This document shows, piece by piece, positions 40,913-53,757 of a stretch of 64,000 nt of DNA. The translations under genes were made by a program, and so were the position numbers. The first letter of the stretch is position 1. The number at the start of each line of letters is the position of its first letter. Below the pieces are notes generated by a model, which searched no databases, had not been told where the DNA came from, and worked only from the letters and a program-made list of their open reading frames with translations. The stretch is from a virus, in the UHGV virus genome UHGV-1366123. One strand, given 5' to 3'.

Positions 40913-40935
40913 AGGATACCTCTTCTGATTAAAGA

Positions 40936-41027
40936 GAGGTACTTTCCTTGAGCTTGGAGGTACTTGGAGGTACTTTCACCCCACCGATAATTCTCGAATG
41001 CAAGGAAAGTACCTCTCTTTAATTCGA
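40936..41027. repeat. palindromic ~90-bp element copy
   Basis: agaggtactttccttgagc ... gcaaggaaagtacctctc, flanked by cctcttctgatta / tttaattcgac. Confidence 0.5.
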
Positions 41028-41145
41028 CAAACCAGAATAACTTCGAAGGTTGATCTAAAGACAATCCCGATATACAGAAAAGGCGACAACTCTCTAAATC
41101 GAGTTGTCGCCTTTTCAACAACAAAAAGTGGTATCACATACGATG

Positions 41146-41216
41146 TTGTCCCTCATTGATTCGAACAAAGACTAACAGAGCCAAGGTCTGTTGTGCTACC
41201 ATTACACCAAAGGACA
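41146..41216 (-). tRNA. tRNA-Gln(TTG) candidate
   Basis: Acceptor TGTCCTT/AGGGACA with 2 GU pairs; D-arm GTGTAATGGTAGCAC; anticodon stem ACAGA/TCTGT, loop CCTTGGC (C33 is unusual); T-loop TTCGAAT. Confidence 0.5.
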
Positions 41217-41335: not shown

Positions 41336-41423
41336 AGACGTAGTGAGAGGTTTCGCTCCTCTGAATATCTTCATCAAGAAGCACTACGTTTGATAAAAAG
41401 GTGGCGAGTTGTCCATACTCTTC

Positions 41424-41496
41424 TCAGTCTGGTAGGATTCGAACCTACATCATCTAAGAACCACCTTATAGGAATTTCCGATTATTCTACAGACTG
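41424..41496 (-). tRNA. tRNA-like gene with an aberrant anticodon arm (4-bp stem, 6-nt loop)
   Basis: Perfect acceptor CAGTCTG/CAGACTG, D-arm GAAT-AATCGGAA-ATTC, T-arm GTAGG-TTCGAAT-CCTAC, but the anticodon region TATAAGGTGGTTCTTAG does not fold canonically. Confidence 0.4.
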
Positions 41497-41862
41497 AACA
41501 ACAAACGATAATGAAGATTCAAAATGCTGAATATCTGCAAATCGGAAACTATGATTGATTCATCTTTTAGACAGCTATGGACAATACCGAATGGGGTATC
41601 AAACCAGTAACTTGAAGATTTTTATAGATTGCTGTAAGTCCATAATCTAAAAGACGTTTTTTCTATCTTTTTCGTCGAAATCTTTACTGCAGACGTTATC
41701 TATGAGCCAATTATGAAGATTCTGTTTGCTGTGTGTCTACAGATCCCGACATTAAGAATTCTTTAAAAGAACGCTTTGTGAATGATGACTTCCCAGTGGA
41801 CTACGTAGTTTTAGGAGCAATTGCATAGTAATTTGCTGTGAATCCAATAGATCATCATTTTG

Positions 41863-42892: not shown

Positions 42893-43846
42893 TCATTTAG
42901 TCGTAGTTTGTTTCTTCTTGATGATCATTCTAAAATAAGTCTGCTCGCCATTCACAGACAAATATTTCCCGTCGTTTCCCCTTCTGGATGTCACAATCTC
43001 AAATTGTTGAGGATTGAATTTATACAAGAATGTTATCGGAACCCCCATGCAACCATTGTAATCTCGTGGTATATCCTTGACCCTATCGACATTTATACCA
43101 TCATAATTGTCGTATTTGGGATATTCATGTTCGTGTCCATAGTAGTTTTTTGTAAGCGGAATATCTTCATGTCGCATAGAGTGGTTCAAATTCGTAAACC
43201 ACAGACAATTATTGGTGGGCGTGATCATATTACCAGATTCGTCCATCCATGTTTTTTTCATGTAGGGTTCATAATGGGCTGGTATGATAAACCCAGAAAA
43301 TTCGTTCCCACGATTTACACCAAGCCATGCCTTACCATCTTGAACGGATTTGAAGATTTCTTTGTTGGTGATAGAATTGATATTCCCAATAATGAGAAAG
43401 AGCTTATCGTATCTGATCAGTTGTGTCATATATTCACGGAACAACGAAAATGGTGGATTTGTAACAACTATGTCAGATTGTTCCAGCAAATCGATACTTT
43501 CTTGACTACGAAAGTCGCCATCACCATTGAAGTAAACAACATCAGCTGTCTTTGGATCTGTATCGACGAGTTCTGTCCCTGTGTATTCAAAGAAAAAACC
43601 ACGACTGTTTTCCTTATAACAAGATGCAATCACCTTCCGAAGTCCCAATTCTTTGAAATTGGAAACGAAGTATTTGAAAAAGTTACTCGTCAGAGGATCA
43701 TCACAATTGCAATACACAACTTTCCCTTTAAAATGGCTTTCATAATGTCGCAATTCTCTTTCGATATCAATAAGTTGCGTATAGAACTCGTCGTTCTTTT
43801 GCTTTCTAGCATTACGAAGTAACTTGCTGGTTGTTGCCCTTGCCAT
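42893..43846 (-). CDS. DNA N6-adenine (amino) methyltransferase
   Basis: DIVVTNPPF catalytic motif IV (NPPF), DEFYTQ N-terminal motif, CNCDDP. Confidence 0.55.
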   Translation of the reverse strand: MARATTSKLLRNARKQKNDEFYTQLIDIERELRHYESHFKGKVVYCNCDDPLTSNFFKYFVSNFKELGLRKVIASCYKENSRGFFFEYTGTELVDTDPKTADVVYFNGDGDFRSQESIDLLEQSDIVVTNPPFSLFREYMTQLIRYDKLFLIIGNINSITNKEIFKSVQDGKAWLGVNRGNEFSGFIIPAHYEPYMKKTWMDESGNMITPTNNCLWFTNLNHSMRHEDIPLTKNYYGHEHEYPKYDNYDGINVDRVKDIPRDYNGCMGVPITFLYKFNPQQFEIVTSRRGNDGKYLSVNGEQTYFRMIIKKKQTTTK

Positions 43847-43849
43847 ATT

Positions 43850-44300
43850 TCCGTCTTTTAATATAAATCTTCAGAATAGAGAATCGTCTTATCTTTTACA
43901 TCTTCTATTTGATCAGCTTCTTTAGCTATCTTACAAACTTCATACCTATCAACAAATATCACTTTAGAAGTGTAGAAGCCTTATCGTATGTGAAAAATCT
44001 GCGTTTTATCCAGTTCTCACTTCTTGTTTCAACCTGCCATTACTTTTTAGGAACACGAGGTTCGGTCATCCATAAGAGGGCAGTCCGCAAGCGTAAATTC
44101 GGTGCTACGAACACCTACTCGATTTTTTATATGTTAGACAGTTTGAAGTTTTCTTTGTCCTTCAATGAGAATGTTCTTCGAAGCGTTTATATCTCTGTCG
44201 TGATATTCACCACATTCGGGACAAGTCCAAAACCTATCACCGAGTTTCAAGTCTTTCTTCTTGTAACCACAACATAAACAAGTCTTTGAACTTGGATAGA
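43850..44300 (-). ncRNA. putative omega-RNA/right-end region of the TnpB element (boundaries unknown)
   Basis: Inference only: omega-RNAs of IS200/IS605 TnpB overlap the 3' end of tnpB and extend into the downstream non-coding DNA; a 287-bp non-coding stretch follows the tnpB stop. Confidence 0.25.
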
Positions 44301-45276
44301 ACCTATTGATAAGAACAACTCGCTTATCATTCATAAGAGCCTTATATTGCAATATCGACTTGAACCGATAAAATCCAGACTCTTGGATAGCATTCGCAAG
44401 ATAACGATTTCCAAGCATCCCTTTAATATTCAAGTCTTCCATGAACACCACGTCGTATGATTTGAGGATCTCGTTCACAACTGAGTGGATGTAGTTCTCT
44501 TTCTTGTTCGTTATATTCGCAATCACTTTTGCAAGTCTGATTCTCTGTTTGTTCCTATTGTTTGAACCTTTGACCTTTCTGGATAGTTGACGATGAAGTC
44601 TTGTGATCTTCTTTTCCTCCTTCTTGAAGAAGTGTTTGTTTTCAAACACAAATCCATCAGAGGTTATGACGAAATCTTTCACACCAAGATCAATACCGAC
44701 TTGCTTGTTGGTCTTTTCAAACTTTACAAATTCTGCTTCGGGAATGTCGATAAGGATTGATAAGAAGAAATTCCCACTCTTGGTTTTCGAGAGAGTTGCA
44801 CTTCTTATGTTATCTTTGTACTTCTGTAAGCGTTTGTGATACAAGTCAGAACAACGGAATCTGAGTTTTTGAAGAGAAGTGATTAGTGTTATATGTTTCG
44901 TTTCGAAAGTGTTCCTCTTTGAAATAGCATTACGAGGAAACAATGCTGATTGTTTGTCTTTCTTTGATTTAAACTTTGGAAAGCCTTTATGATGATTGAA
45001 GAAGTTTTGATAAGCACCGACCATCTGTTTGATTGCTTGGTTCATCACCTTTGTGTTCTGTTCTCTCAACCAAGCATATTGTTCATCTTTCAACAATGAT
45101 CCGTGGAAATATTTCGATAGATCGCTTTCGCTTAGGTTTGTCTTGTCCGTTTCATAAGCCTTTTGTTTTCTATCGAGCATGTGATTATAGACAAAACGAT
45201 AAGCACCAAGAACCTTGTTGAGTTCTTGTTCCTGCGCTTTGTTTGGATATAACCTTATTTTAATCGCTCTAAACAT
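44134..45276 (-). CDS. tnpB: TnpB (IS200/IS605-family OrfB, RNA-guided RuvC-like endonuclease)
   Basis: N-terminus MFRAIKIRLYPNKAQEQELNKVLGAYRFVYN; C-terminal zinc finger CLCCGYKKKDLKLGDRFWTCPECGEYHDRDINASKNI. Confidence 0.8.
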   Translation of the reverse strand: MFRAIKIRLYPNKAQEQELNKVLGAYRFVYNHMLDRKQKAYETDKTNLSESDLSKYFHGSLLKDEQYAWLREQNTKVMNQAIKQMVGAYQNFFNHHKGFPKFKSKKDKQSALFPRNAISKRNTFETKHITLITSLQKLRFRCSDLYHKRLQKYKDNIRSATLSKTKSGNFFLSILIDIPEAEFVKFEKTNKQVGIDLGVKDFVITSDGFVFENKHFFKKEEKKITRLHRQLSRKVKGSNNRNKQRIRLAKVIANITNKKENYIHSVVNEILKSYDVVFMEDLNIKGMLGNRYLANAIQESGFYRFKSILQYKALMNDKRVVLINRFYPSSKTCLCCGYKKKDLKLGDRFWTCPECGEYHDRDINASKNILIEGQRKLQTV

Positions 45277-45295
45277 GCCTATGATTGATTATCCA

Positions 45296-45520
45296 TTACA
45301 GATCTTTTTCTTCTGCTAATATCCTATCGAATTCCAATCTCAGACAGCGAAGATAGCCGTTCATGTATTCATACTTAGTCTGCTGGAAGAACTTCTCATC
45401 TGGTGTCAACTTCTCAAACTCTAAAGATTGGATGAAATCGAGTTGCTTCAAAGTGACTTCTTTGAACCTTTCATAGCTCTTTAAAGCTTTCCGTCTCCTC
45501 TGTCCAAATTCTTCAAACAT
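45296..45520 (-). CDS. hypothetical small protein
   Basis: 74-aa minus-strand ORF ending 19 bp before tnpB. Confidence 0.3.
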   Translation of the reverse strand: MFEEFGQRRRKALKSYERFKEVTLKQLDFIQSLEFEKLTPDEKFFQQTKYEYMNGYLRCLRLEFDRILAEEKDL

Positions 45521-45764: not shown

Positions 45765-45831
45765 TGCTTCGTGAAGGATTCGAACCTTCATCAATTCCGT
45801 CGAATCGCTCTGGCCATTGAGCTAACGAAGC
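45765..45831 (-). tRNA. truncated tRNA-like gene; the anticodon arm is replaced by a short tetraloop hairpin
   Basis: Acceptor GCTTCGT/ACGAAGC, D-arm GCTC-AATGGCCA-GAGC, T-arm GAAGG-TTCGAAT-CCTTC, but only 16 nt (GATTC-GACG-GAATT) lie between the D-arm and T-arm. Confidence 0.4.
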
Positions 45832-47067: not shown

Positions 47068-47120
47068 CTTCCGCATATTGAAGAAATGTGTTAAAGTGTA
47101 TTATCAACTGATACGCTTTA

Positions 47121-47203
47121 AAGGAAGGTATTTTCCTTGCGCTCTGAGAGGTTCAAGAATATGAAAATAGCGGAGAATAGATCAGAGCGCAAGGAAAGTA
47201 CCA
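47121..47203. repeat. palindromic ~85-bp element, copy A
   Basis: aaggaaggtattttccttgcgctctga ... tcagagcgcaaggaaagtacc, with inner core gaatatgaaaatagcggaga. Confidence 0.6.
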
Positions 47204-47411
47204 AGGAAAGCCAAGGAGACATATCCTTTGGAATGATGGGTTTCTGTCGGGAGACAATGACTATTTCCAAGGATTATGAGAAGACTATGACAATAATGGA
47301 GGACAATGGAAGATTATCAATGACTTGAAAGACAATGGTTGGAAAATGACTGATTTTTAGAGGATTATCAGAGGACTATCTTTTGGAAAATGGTTGGTGA
47401 TTATCGAATTA

Positions 47412-47493
47412 AAGGAAGGTACTTTCCTTGTCCTCGAAGCTATTCGAGAATATGAAAATAGCGGAGACCATACTCGAGTTCAAGGAAAGTACC
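47412..47493. repeat. palindromic ~85-bp element, copy B
   Basis: aaggaaggtactttccttgtcctcgaag ... ctcgagttcaaggaaagtacc; same inner core. Confidence 0.6.
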
Positions 47494-47559
47494 AAGGAAA
47501 TCCAAGGAGACATATTTTCGAGGATTATGGTCTCTGTGGCTAATGGGAGGAATATCTTG

Positions 47560-48229: not shown

Positions 48230-49340
48230 CTTTCCCTTTCCACAATAAAACCATTTAGTGATTGTCTTTTGTCTTCAAAACGATTATCATTAAAGGGGCG
48301 GAAATCTATGATTCAGACAAAAGTCATCTTCTATTAACAAATCTTTAGAGAATTCTTTCAATCTTTAGAGAAATTTTTCAAAGAGACTATGACTTTTTCT
48401 ATTGTCTTTGATAATCTTTTCACGATCCTCTATTGTCTTGGTGATTCTTTGATGATCAGTCATTGTCTTTGATTATGGTTGATTGTCTTCCATAGTCTTC
48501 TGATAATCACTGACAATAGTCATTGTCTTCCGACAATCATACCACCATTCAACAGAATACCTCTTCTGATTACAGGAAGGTACTTTCCTTGCGCTCTGAT
48601 CCATTTTCCGCTATTTCTATCCCACCGAATGTCTTCGAGGACAAGGAAAGTACCTTCCTTTAATTCAACCATTCTCAACCATTTTCTGGTAGATCATCTT
48701 CATAATCATTCAAAGAACCAGTTGTGAAGACGGTCATCATTGTCTTTCCATAATCCTTTGATGGTCAGTCATTGTCTTTGATTGTTTTCCATAGTCAGTC
48801 ATTGTCTTTGATTATGGTCGATTGTCTTTCCATAGTCTTCTCATAATCCTTCGAAATAGTCATTGTCTCCCGACAGAAACCCATAATCCTCGAGAATATG
48901 TCTCCTGATTACAGGAAGGTACTTTCCTTGAACTCGAGTATGGTCTCCGCTATTTTCATATTCTTGAATATCTCAGAGCGCAAGGAAAGTACCTCGTCTT
49001 AATTAATGAATCAGAACTATTGTCTCTTCATAGTCTTCTGATAATACTTCAATAATCGTCCATTGTCTTTCAATAATCAGCCATTGTCTTCCGATTATGG
49101 TCGATTGTCTTTGATGATTGTTGATTGTCTTTGATGATTGTTGATTGTCTTCCATAATCAGTCATTATCTTGGATAGTCTTCCATAATCCTTCGAAATGG
49201 TCTATTGTCTTCGGATGATGACCCATAGTCCCCGAGAATACCTCTCCTTGGCTCTCCTTGGTACTTTCCTTGCATTCTGATACACTTTCCGCTATTTTCA
49301 TATTCTCGGGCTATTTCGAGGACAAGGAAAGTACCTCTCT
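48230..49340. repeat. three tandem ~340-bp direct repeats rich in CATTGTCTT(T/C) sub-repeats; each ends in a palindromic element copy (C 48573-48660, D 48912-48996, E 49251-49338)
   Basis: Repeated gtcattgtctttgattatggtcgattgtctt(c/t)ccata(g/a)tc... blocks; each terminates with (c)ctcttctgattacaggaaggtactttccttg...caaggaaagtacct...ttaatt. Confidence 0.55.
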
Positions 49341-49479
49341 TTAATTCACAACTCTGTGACCATTTCTCCAGCCAATTTTCTGATTATTGCTGGAAGGTCA
49401 ATGTTTGGATACAGATGTGGGGAGAAGAAATCAAACTTCTCCCCACATTCTTCTTTTTGATTTGTAGGTTTCTTTTCTT

Positions 49480-53406: not shown

Positions 53407-53757
53407 ATGAAAGTCTTAGAATTAGTACAGAATCTGAATCACGAGGTCATAACACTCTTTCACGATTCTATAAGCTCATCACTGATATCCAACAACTTCC
53501 CTTTTGATGCTTTGAAGGTGTCAGTGTCCTTGCATGAAGGTAAGTCCACTCATGTCGATTGCGAAATATCTCAAGAAAACATGGAGAAGACGTACACGAT
53601 CTGTGTCGTAGAAGATGGTGTTCTCTATGCTCTGTGTGACACATCGATCTATGGGAAATACCACGATGAAAATCAGAGTGTCATGGAAATCGTGGATGAA
53701 TCTACAACTGTAGATGATGTAGTTGAGAGATTTTTACGGTACATCACTCACAGATAG
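53407..53757 (+). CDS. hypothetical protein
   Basis: 116-aa ORF. Confidence 0.3.
   Translation: MKVLELVQNLNHEVITLFHDSISSSLISNNFPFDALKVSVSLHEGKSTHVDCEISQENMEKTYTICVVEDGVLYALCDTSIYGKYHDENQSVMEIVDESTTVDDVVERFLRYITHR

Follow-up and report, generated by a model that had tools for sequence, protein, structure and literature searches.

TnpB is thought to persist by helping TnpA-driven transposons avoid loss. For the ISDra2 system, the literature (Meers et al. 2023, PMC10055086) gives cleavage of the empty site by the nuclease, followed by recombination that puts the element back. Homing by TnpB together with TnpA has been described (PMC10055086, PMC10690162), and a review compares TnpB homing with homing endonucleases (PMC13565253). 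Here we analyse a tnpB locus in a stretch of 64,000 nucleotides (nt) of the virus genome UHGV-1366123, hereafter the window, which belongs to a T4-like phage as judged from its UvsX-like recombinase, SbcC/gp46-like nuclease subunit, baseplate wedge protein, head protease and GroEL genes. The locus holds a complete module of TnpB and omega-RNA; it lacks a transposon left end, and our search detected no TnpA. We consider it somewhat probable (roughly 0.58) that this cassette is a functional TnpB and omega-RNA acting as an RNA-guided, free-standing homing endonuclease gene. We found no description in the literature searched of a phage TnpB without a left end as a free-standing homing gene, which is not proof that none exists.

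The TnpB protein and its omega-RNA scaffold

The tnpB coding sequence occupies positions 44134..45276 on the (-) strand and encodes 380 amino acids, with its TAA stop codon at 44136..44134. The open reading frame (ORF) call is accompanied by three Pfam domains, all above their cut-offs (HTH_OrfB_IS605, PF12323, 4e-17; OrfB_IS605, PF01385, 6e-21; Cas12f1-like_TNB, PF07282, 2e-22), and by a full-length alignment with ISDra2 TnpB (8BF8/8EXA/8H1J; E 3e-55). These show the layout expected of a TnpB: an HTH/REC-like N-terminus, a split RuvC domain and a zinc ribbon at the C-terminus. In this alignment the RuvC triad of the window protein is intact, D196, E280 and D362 corresponding to D191, E278 and D361 of ISDra2, and the zinc-ribbon cysteines (CxxC...CxxC) are C333/C336 and C352/C355. 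A preliminary description of the locus, made from the sequence alone, had recognised a 380-residue TnpB with a zinc finger and RuvC; this is borne out by each of these comparisons, and the mutated RuvC residues that it had raised as a possibility are not what we find.

The same description had expected an omega-RNA scaffold in a 287-bp gene-free stretch 3' of tnpB. This gap is present (43847..44133), separates tnpB from an EcoRI-type methyltransferase gene, and contains a scaffold of 135 nt at 43983..44117 (-), which ends in ...CATACGAT, the right end of the element. An A-rich spacer of 16 nt (44118..44133, (-)), variable among the aligned relatives, separates the scaffold from the stop codon. 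The structure was assessed on an alignment of 63 distinct copies, with partner-slid and shuffle controls. Seven helices leave 96.9% of cells paired (standard pairs), as opposed to 40-54% in the slid controls; compensatory changes on both sides occur in 21 of the 33 scaffold pairs, and all shuffles stay below these values. From the 63 copies a covariance model was built, which finds a single match in the window (44117..43985, 126.7 bits, E 7e-23) and one scaffold copy after each tnpB in the related loci. Thus, both covariation and the covariance-model search, an approach proposed in the preliminary description, confirm its placement of the scaffold, and the conserved right end and RNA structure whose absence it had considered are both there.

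Rfam, searched at gathering and permissive thresholds, yielded only tRNAs and sub-threshold noise and no omega-RNA family match; hence, no known omega-RNA family is found at this locus. Single-sequence folding of the tnpB 3' region was uninformative (z = -1.1). The window scaffold is a short variant without some 9-10 nt in the 3' hairpin region, and further lineages whose ORFs are intact have it too (L016/L021/L024, L048, L012 and L008; L numbers denote related loci). Extra omega-RNA copies that do not follow the tnpB fetched at the locus in question were also seen (L032/L033, 2883-3019; L009/L010, 1689-1837; L061/L062, 1378-1515); two of these loci, L032 and L033, have a truncated scaffold fused straight onto the ATG of the next tnpB.

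Cassette boundaries and the predicted guide

DNA homology between the window and 78 related loci begins at the tnpB ATG and stops about 115-150 nt past the stop codon. Sister phages L079, L080 and L081 are free of tnpB at this position and carry instead an intact gene of 92 amino acids that matches phrog_839 (E 2e-15); the intact gene at the same position in L104, L105, L115 and L116 (92 amino acids) and in L106 (95 amino acids) is PF26092 T4_Y16D. In L079 and L080 the stretch A(C/T)AAT(C/T)AATCATAGGT(A/G)ATG stands directly before the intact T4_Y16D-like gene, and the sequence preceding the tnpB ATG in the window, ATAATCAATCATAGGC, is the native sequence before that gene's ATG in these two phages. 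By this empty-site comparison, the 19-nt leader TGGATAATCAATCATAGGC (45277..45295, (-)) is phage sequence from the ribosome-binding region of the replaced gene and not a left end. Given that the leader is native and that homology begins at the ATG, the cassette starts at most a few bases from its start codon and is without a left end; upstream of tnpB in the window, there is no IS200/IS605 left end with a subterminal hairpin.

At the other boundary, the conserved 3' block ends in ...TTTCA(T/C)(A/G)TACG(A/G/T)T, beyond which the sequences are unrelated. Nearly all of the 63 aligned copies have the right end ...TACG(A/G/T)T with flanks that diverge at once after it, and several independent flanks abut ...TACGAT. 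We assign the terminal AT to the element, as the empty sites show TC or CC at these two positions. A conserved right end with a defined cleavage point, as expected of IS200/IS605, is therefore one feature that the window does have. The preliminary description had suggested looking for both ends: the right end is conserved, while the left end is missing and the 19-bp spacing that it had correctly measured between the tnpB start and the stop of an upstream 74-codon ORF is the ribosome-binding region of the replaced gene.

Immediately after the terminal AT, native gene sequence follows without interruption, AAGGCTTCTACACTTC in the window corresponding to AGATC and then AAGGCTTTTACACTTC in L079/L080. 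Since the scaffold ends in ...CATACGAT at 43983, the predicted guide is 43982..43967, i.e., the 16 nt AAGGCTTCTACACTTC at 43967..43982 (-), which are the first bases of the gene remnant. Fifteen of its 16 positions match the intact gene of the cassette-free L079/L080, where the match is preceded by CCAGAAGATC. The guide had previously been placed near ~43.85-43.95 kb; this location is not upheld, the predicted guide being 30-130 nt closer than proposed. A 16-mer beginning two bases upstream (ATAAGGCTTCTACACT, 43984..43969; the terminal AT and 14 guide bases) was searched for elsewhere: in the window it found its own flank only, with no other site at three or fewer mismatches, and among viral contigs it found 13 matches including the orthologue L013, which by a rough estimate is about the number expected by chance.

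What remains of the T4_Y16D-like/phrog_839 gene is its in-frame 3' part of 40 codons and a stop, with no start codon (43858..43980, (-)). The cassette replaced about the first 163 nt of this small gene, and the tnpB ATG took over its ribosome-binding site. Consequently, the earlier view of the 287-bp gap as the scaffold site holds for its first 151 nt, which are spacer and scaffold, and fails for the remaining ~125 nt, about half of the gap, which are the gene remnant. We also considered that the right flank might be an internal 45-nt deletion that makes the guide useless; this was rejected, as the alignment with L079/L080 shows contiguous native sequence.

No tnpA was reported in the preliminary description, and none was found here: in a weak test with one IS608 TnpA sequence as query, neither the window nor the 103 related loci (803 kb) gave a tblastn match below E = 2, and the space between tnpB and its neighbouring genes contains no ORF. 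Nor does the window show a clean insertion 3' of a 4-5-nt target, given the loss of ~163 nt here and the deletions or 16-134-nt duplications of sister copies. The locus is not a complete IS200/IS605 copy. Hence, the suggestion that it is a domesticated or hitch-hiking IS200/IS605 copy does not fit its structure, which lacks a left end, and undersells both the selection acting on it and the several positions of the cassette in sister phages.

Selection on the protein and the RNA

The window was compared with copies at the same locus in L013, L065 and L001. All four descend from one insertion, since they have the same left junction. For tnpB, the ratio of nonsynonymous to synonymous substitution rates (dN/dS) is 0.11-0.17 at dS values of 0.25-0.58. 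The scaffold p-distance among these copies is 0.02-0.06, against a proportion of synonymous differences (pS) of 0.21-0.40, so that conservation of the scaffold exceeds that of synonymous sites 6-10-fold; in helix 3, one pair of changes retains pairing via G-U. Purifying selection thus acts on both the TnpB protein and the scaffold, and we conclude from these two measures that protein and RNA have been maintained since the left end was lost, or without a left end ever having been present.

Cassette positions and guide targets in sister phages

Contigs were fetched for ten close homologues. Nine of them carry the cassette at other positions with 84-87% nucleotide identity from the ATG to ...TACGAT, while the tenth, L111, is more distant (80%), has an upstream promoter-like segment and shows no flank matching the window. 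The sister cassettes are found near window 41.78 kb (L104, L106 and L109); in the tRNA-Ser region (L105); directly after an intact T4_Y16D gene, with the cassette ATG replacing a methylase ATG (L115); joined to sequence reading like a tRNA 3' half (L112); and at window 53.6 kb, between a small gene and an Mre11-like gene (L107, L108 and L113). The cassette is therefore polymorphic between conserved genes, being absent from L079, L080 and L081 and present at alternative positions in L104-L116.

Left junctions lie at the ATG or within ~15 nt of it, with 9-14 nt of the previous leader carried along in L105 and L109. Right junctions are flush with ...TACGAT, except in L113, which ends in ...TACGAC. 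A common left junction is combined with different flush right junctions in window/L001/L112, in L104/L106, in L107/L108/L113 and in L034/L049; at a single locus, three right junctions fall within 40 bp (53624 in L107, 53650 in L108 and about 53616 in L113). Target DNA has been deleted in the window (about 163 nt) and in L001 (about 105 nt), and duplicated in L034 (16 nt) and in L107, L108 and L113 (98-134 nt). A copy of the guide is also present upstream of tnpB in L034 (1763-1778 and 3206-3221), L055, L046 and probably L041, though not in the window; these copies form a direct repeat of 16 to ~25 nt, with the element flanked by target duplicates, and in L055 and L041 they are a tRNA 3' end.

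To relate guides to targets, 15 cassette loci with 13 different guides were compared with cassette-free sister genomes. The guide matches the naive allele without mismatch at 8 loci, with one mismatch at 4, with two at 2 and with three at 1; the guide of L034 matches its naive allele perfectly as well. For the 14 independent junctions in this set plus L034, the two bases 5' of the match in naive DNA are TC (6), CT (5), GC, GA and AT (1 each). In the five CT cases the T is common to the last base of the element, so that the junction can be read as lying between C and T. Allowing for this ambiguity, 12 of the 14 naive targets have a C at or one base before the junction (P about 5e-6), whereas the element's own end carries T at that position (C in L113); the 5' context is thus ...AT for self and ...TC or ...CT for naive DNA. 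Such a junction context is consistent with a predicted short target-adjacent motif (TAM) that would separate target from self.

The guides of L106, L105 and L049, and probably that of L112 with its flank like a tRNA 3' half, lie inside tRNA genes. The window contains a perfect 16/16 protospacer for the L106 guide inside tRNA-Gln (41163..41178, (-)) and another for the L107 guide in the 3' part of the small gene (118 amino acids in L107/L108) upstream of the Mre11-like gene (53624..53639, (+)), and is therefore the 'empty' allele at both loci. A jump mediated by homology of the old guide to the new site was considered and rejected, because guides at different sites show no similarity.

At the 53.6-kb locus, the left flank of L107 is ~100% identical to the window until about 53485 and then ~70% identical over the last ~270 nt of the small gene, which is intact in L107 and ends at the tnpB ATG. 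To the right of the L107 cassette stands a second, 95%-identical copy of the gene's last 134 nt, beginning with the guide; the left copy has five mismatches to L107's own guide, seed positions included. Next to the cassette, both L107 and L108 show a sudden change of identity and a diverged duplicate of the target. The mosaic in L107 is the pattern expected if cassette and flank had been copied from a diverged donor, and appears to resemble the co-conversion around T4 homing endonuclease genes (reviewed in PMC13565253).

More distant relatives (about 70% identity) have a conserved upstream segment of 100-116 nt, within which L034, L049, L058 and L062 carry a GGGTT...AACCC hairpin, and a comparison of L034 with the empty L040 shows a nearly simple insertion. 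The wider family thus includes canonical-looking elements, and the subgroup of the window does not. Pattern scans for empty sites of the left-end-bearing relatives found nothing. A TAM read by eye from the 5' flanks of left-end-bearing copies was dropped for want of a consensus.

Proposed homing and its alternatives

In the homing reading, tnpB would be read through from upstream genes, and TnpB would bind the 135-nt scaffold, which begins 17 nt past the tnpB stop; the guide would be the 16 nt that follow, with which the gene remnant starts. The cassette's own copy would be spared because its scaffold ends in ...GAT, and cassette-free sister phages have ...GATC before the same 16 nt. During co-infection, the complex would cut the intact allele, and UvsX and gp46/47-type recombination would use the cassette-bearing genome to mend the break, so that the cassette is copied together with adjacent markers. 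Such a cassette would stand beside the T4 Seg and Mob genes as their RNA-guided equivalent. This reading builds on the integrity of gene and RNA, both boundaries, purifying selection, the guide-target matches and the presence/absence polymorphism, all of which are observed; its further steps, namely transcription, cleavage, the TAM and homing itself, are inferred.

More speculatively, the tnpB and omega-RNA cassettes of these T4-like gut or oral phages may be autonomous elements that home by RNA guidance, can do without TnpA and a left end, and re-target by moving the post-scaffold junction to a new protospacer next to C or TC, some of them carrying a recoded duplicate of the target end that keeps the gene intact and the cassette immune to its own guide. 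If this tentative generalisation is true, junction shifting would amount to a built-in guide change and an escape from resistant alleles.

Several observations weigh against homing. A guide match alone is no proof, because the flank of any insertion trivially matches the homologous empty allele. C or TC would be a weak and unusual motif for a TnpB, 2 of the 14 junctions lack such a C, a further three have GC in place of TC, and the left-end-bearing relatives differ in their 5' contexts. The co-conversion-like mosaic comes from the sister locus of L107/L108 rather than from that of the window, and the tnpA search covered, with a single query sequence, 64 kb of a ~150-kb genome. Finally, homing alone does not explain the flush right junctions, which hint at a site-specific activity such as TnpA in trans. 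Base-exact right junctions could reflect selection for a working guide or a site-specific enzyme, e.g., a trans-acting TnpA that works on the right end only.

The alternative that survives best, although we regard it as unlikely, follows from this last point. The cassette would be a defective IS200/IS605 copy (IS1341-type, tnpB-only) that is moved by a Y1 TnpA supplied in trans from the host or from elsewhere in the phage genome, with TnpB in its usual retention role and the flush shifts as one-ended TnpA reactions at the right end. Nucleotide-exact right junctions in four pairs or triplets with a common left junction would fit such an enzyme, as would the short C or TC motif before the junction in naive DNA, which resembles a TnpA target; the upstream segment retained by distant members (~100-116 nt), its hairpin in four of the loci and the near-simple insertion of L034 point the same way. 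However, the window copy and the whole 84-93% subgroup are without the left end that TnpA requires for excision, no TnpA-like ORF was detected in the window or in the 803 kb of related loci (again by the weak test), and no host that could supply a matching TnpA is apparent, with only 2 relatives in 185,579 species genomes. The variable bits of former flank at the left junctions of L105 and L109 are not transposase-like, and target deletions and target duplications of 16 to 134 nt are not IS200/IS605 behaviour. If TnpA does act in trans, the shifts between flush junctions would be a record of one-ended IS200/IS605 reactions in the genomes of phages.

A further alternative, to which we assign a slightly lower probability still, is that the cassette is mainly a weapon which destroys co-infecting related phages with an intact target, with little or no copying of the cassette. 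The guide does match alleles of sister phages, purifying selection continues without transposition machinery, and phage homing endonucleases can give an advantage by killing competitors too divergent for gene conversion (review, PMC13565253). Against exclusion as the main role, the several loci, many lineages and mosaic flanks indicate copying into new genomes; it should also be noted that exclusion and homing are not mutually exclusive. The remaining alternative, an inactive relic or a nuclease-dead TldR-type regulator repressing a neighbouring gene, would agree with the missing left end, with the negative tnpA search, with a guide that points into the phage's own downstream DNA and with the short scaffold, but is highly improbable because the RuvC triad and zinc ribbon are intact and both tnpB (dN/dS 0.11-0.17) and the scaffold (6-10 times more conserved than synonymous sites) are under selection, the short scaffold itself recurring in lineages with intact ORFs.

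Distribution of relatives

In a scan of viral contigs, relatives at 49-93% identity were found at 78 loci, often several per contig, and 95 relatives in total, compared with 2 among the 185,579 species genomes (one genome per species). Megablast of the window against 50,697 deposited phage genomes returned no match. More than 7,900 homologues are in the protein database, the top 120 all being at least 74% identical; among the matches listed, many come from contigs that measure ~145-150 kb or ~245-255 kb, and the name of five is 'MAG TPA: endonuclease [Caudoviricetes sp.]'. The best named relatives by protein are the TnpB of Lak megaphages (Prevotella phages), with 50% identity over 99% of the protein.

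Early in-frame stops occur in some relatives (L049, whose copy is at 1755, L056, L041 and L055) and may denote pseudogenes or stop-codon recoding. Leaders upstream of tnpB differ between subfamilies (L007, L008 and L012; the group of L025, L030 and L035), one type having a Bacteroidota-type TAnnTTTG motif and a GTGGG..CCCAC hairpin and the other a sigma-70-type pair, TTGGAA-N17-TATAAT. These different promoter-like leaders suggest adaptation to different hosts. In L111 (contig NODE_1_length_125843), WYL_2 and HNH_3 genes lie between two tnpB genes.

Genomic surroundings of the cassette

The tRNA-region setting given in the preliminary description is correct, with tRNA genes on both sides of tnpB at 41.1-41.9 kb and 45.8-46.8 kb. 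One tRNA, at 45765-45831 (-), is an Rfam match missing from the ARAGORN list, and ARAGORN reports a tRNA at 41423-41497 (-) with an undetermined anticodon ('gg'). Downstream of the 3' gap, the EcoRI-type methyltransferase gene spans 42893..43846. Upstream, neither Pfam nor PHROG gives a match for the 74-codon ORF (45296..45520, (-)); L013, L065, L081 and L115 carry it, L079, L080, L001 and L112 lack it, and similar AAT.A.T.ATAGG..ATG motifs bound it. A promoter and terminator scan of 42.8-46.2 kb gave no signal above chance, and tnpB is probably co-transcribed with this ORF.

Repeat families (116-122 nt and ~340 nt) occur at 40913-41028, 47118-47530 and 48411-49350, with a 10-nt periodic sub-motif resembling GATTGTCTTT; copies of these repeats adjoin a TnsA-like gene in sister loci. 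The GC skew of the window reaches +0.26 at 47-48 kb.

Comparison with known systems

If the homing reading is true, an RNA-guided nuclease alone can be a selfish homing element wherever recombination is very active. A phage clade that keeps nuclease and guide RNA under selection, with no left end and no detected transposase, would then depart from the view of TnpB as an aid to TnpA-dependent retention, and would provide a direct link between OMEGA systems and the classical T4 free-standing homing endonucleases, as well as a natural model of guide turnover. In practical terms, the locus yields a compact nuclease of 380 amino acids, a defined 135-nt scaffold and many natural guide-target pairs.

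Among described systems, ISDra2 TnpB-omegaRNA of Deinococcus radiodurans has the same architecture and catalytic residues over the full length, and there too the guide scaffold is on the same strand at the tnpB 3' end and stops at the right end, with flanking DNA as the guide. In contrast to ISDra2, the window cassette is without a left end and starts at the ATG, and no tnpA was found. Its insertion replaced 163 nt of a gene, whereas that of ISDra2 is clean and 3' of a TTGAT-type TAM; the putative target-adjacent motif here is only C or TC. The window scaffold, furthermore, has no Rfam match and belongs to a family almost confined to phage contigs.

Lak megaphage genomes carry several tnpB copies each, in records that are unannotated, and these proteins are only 50% identical to the window TnpB. 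TldR proteins are likewise TnpB relatives kept without a transposase and with a guide RNA; unlike TldR, which lost the RuvC catalytic residues, the window TnpB keeps D196, E280 and D362.

The T-even free-standing homing endonuclease genes (SegA-G and MobA-E) resemble the window cassette in being nuclease genes wedged between or into conserved T4-like genes, present or absent among close relatives. Their target lies in the allele without the gene, as predicted for the cassette, and the flanking mosaic of L107 and L108 may be a counterpart of their co-conversion. T4 SegB acts in the tRNA gene region of T4, and the window cassette also lies in a tRNA region; SegB cleaves tRNA genes (PMC13565253), and several of the sister-cassette guides are likewise inside tRNA genes. 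Unlike the Seg and Mob enzymes, the window nuclease is a RuvC-type TnpB and not of the GIY-YIG or HNH type, it would recognise its target by a 16-nt RNA guide rather than by protein, and the target of such a cassette could change by a shift of the post-scaffold junction.

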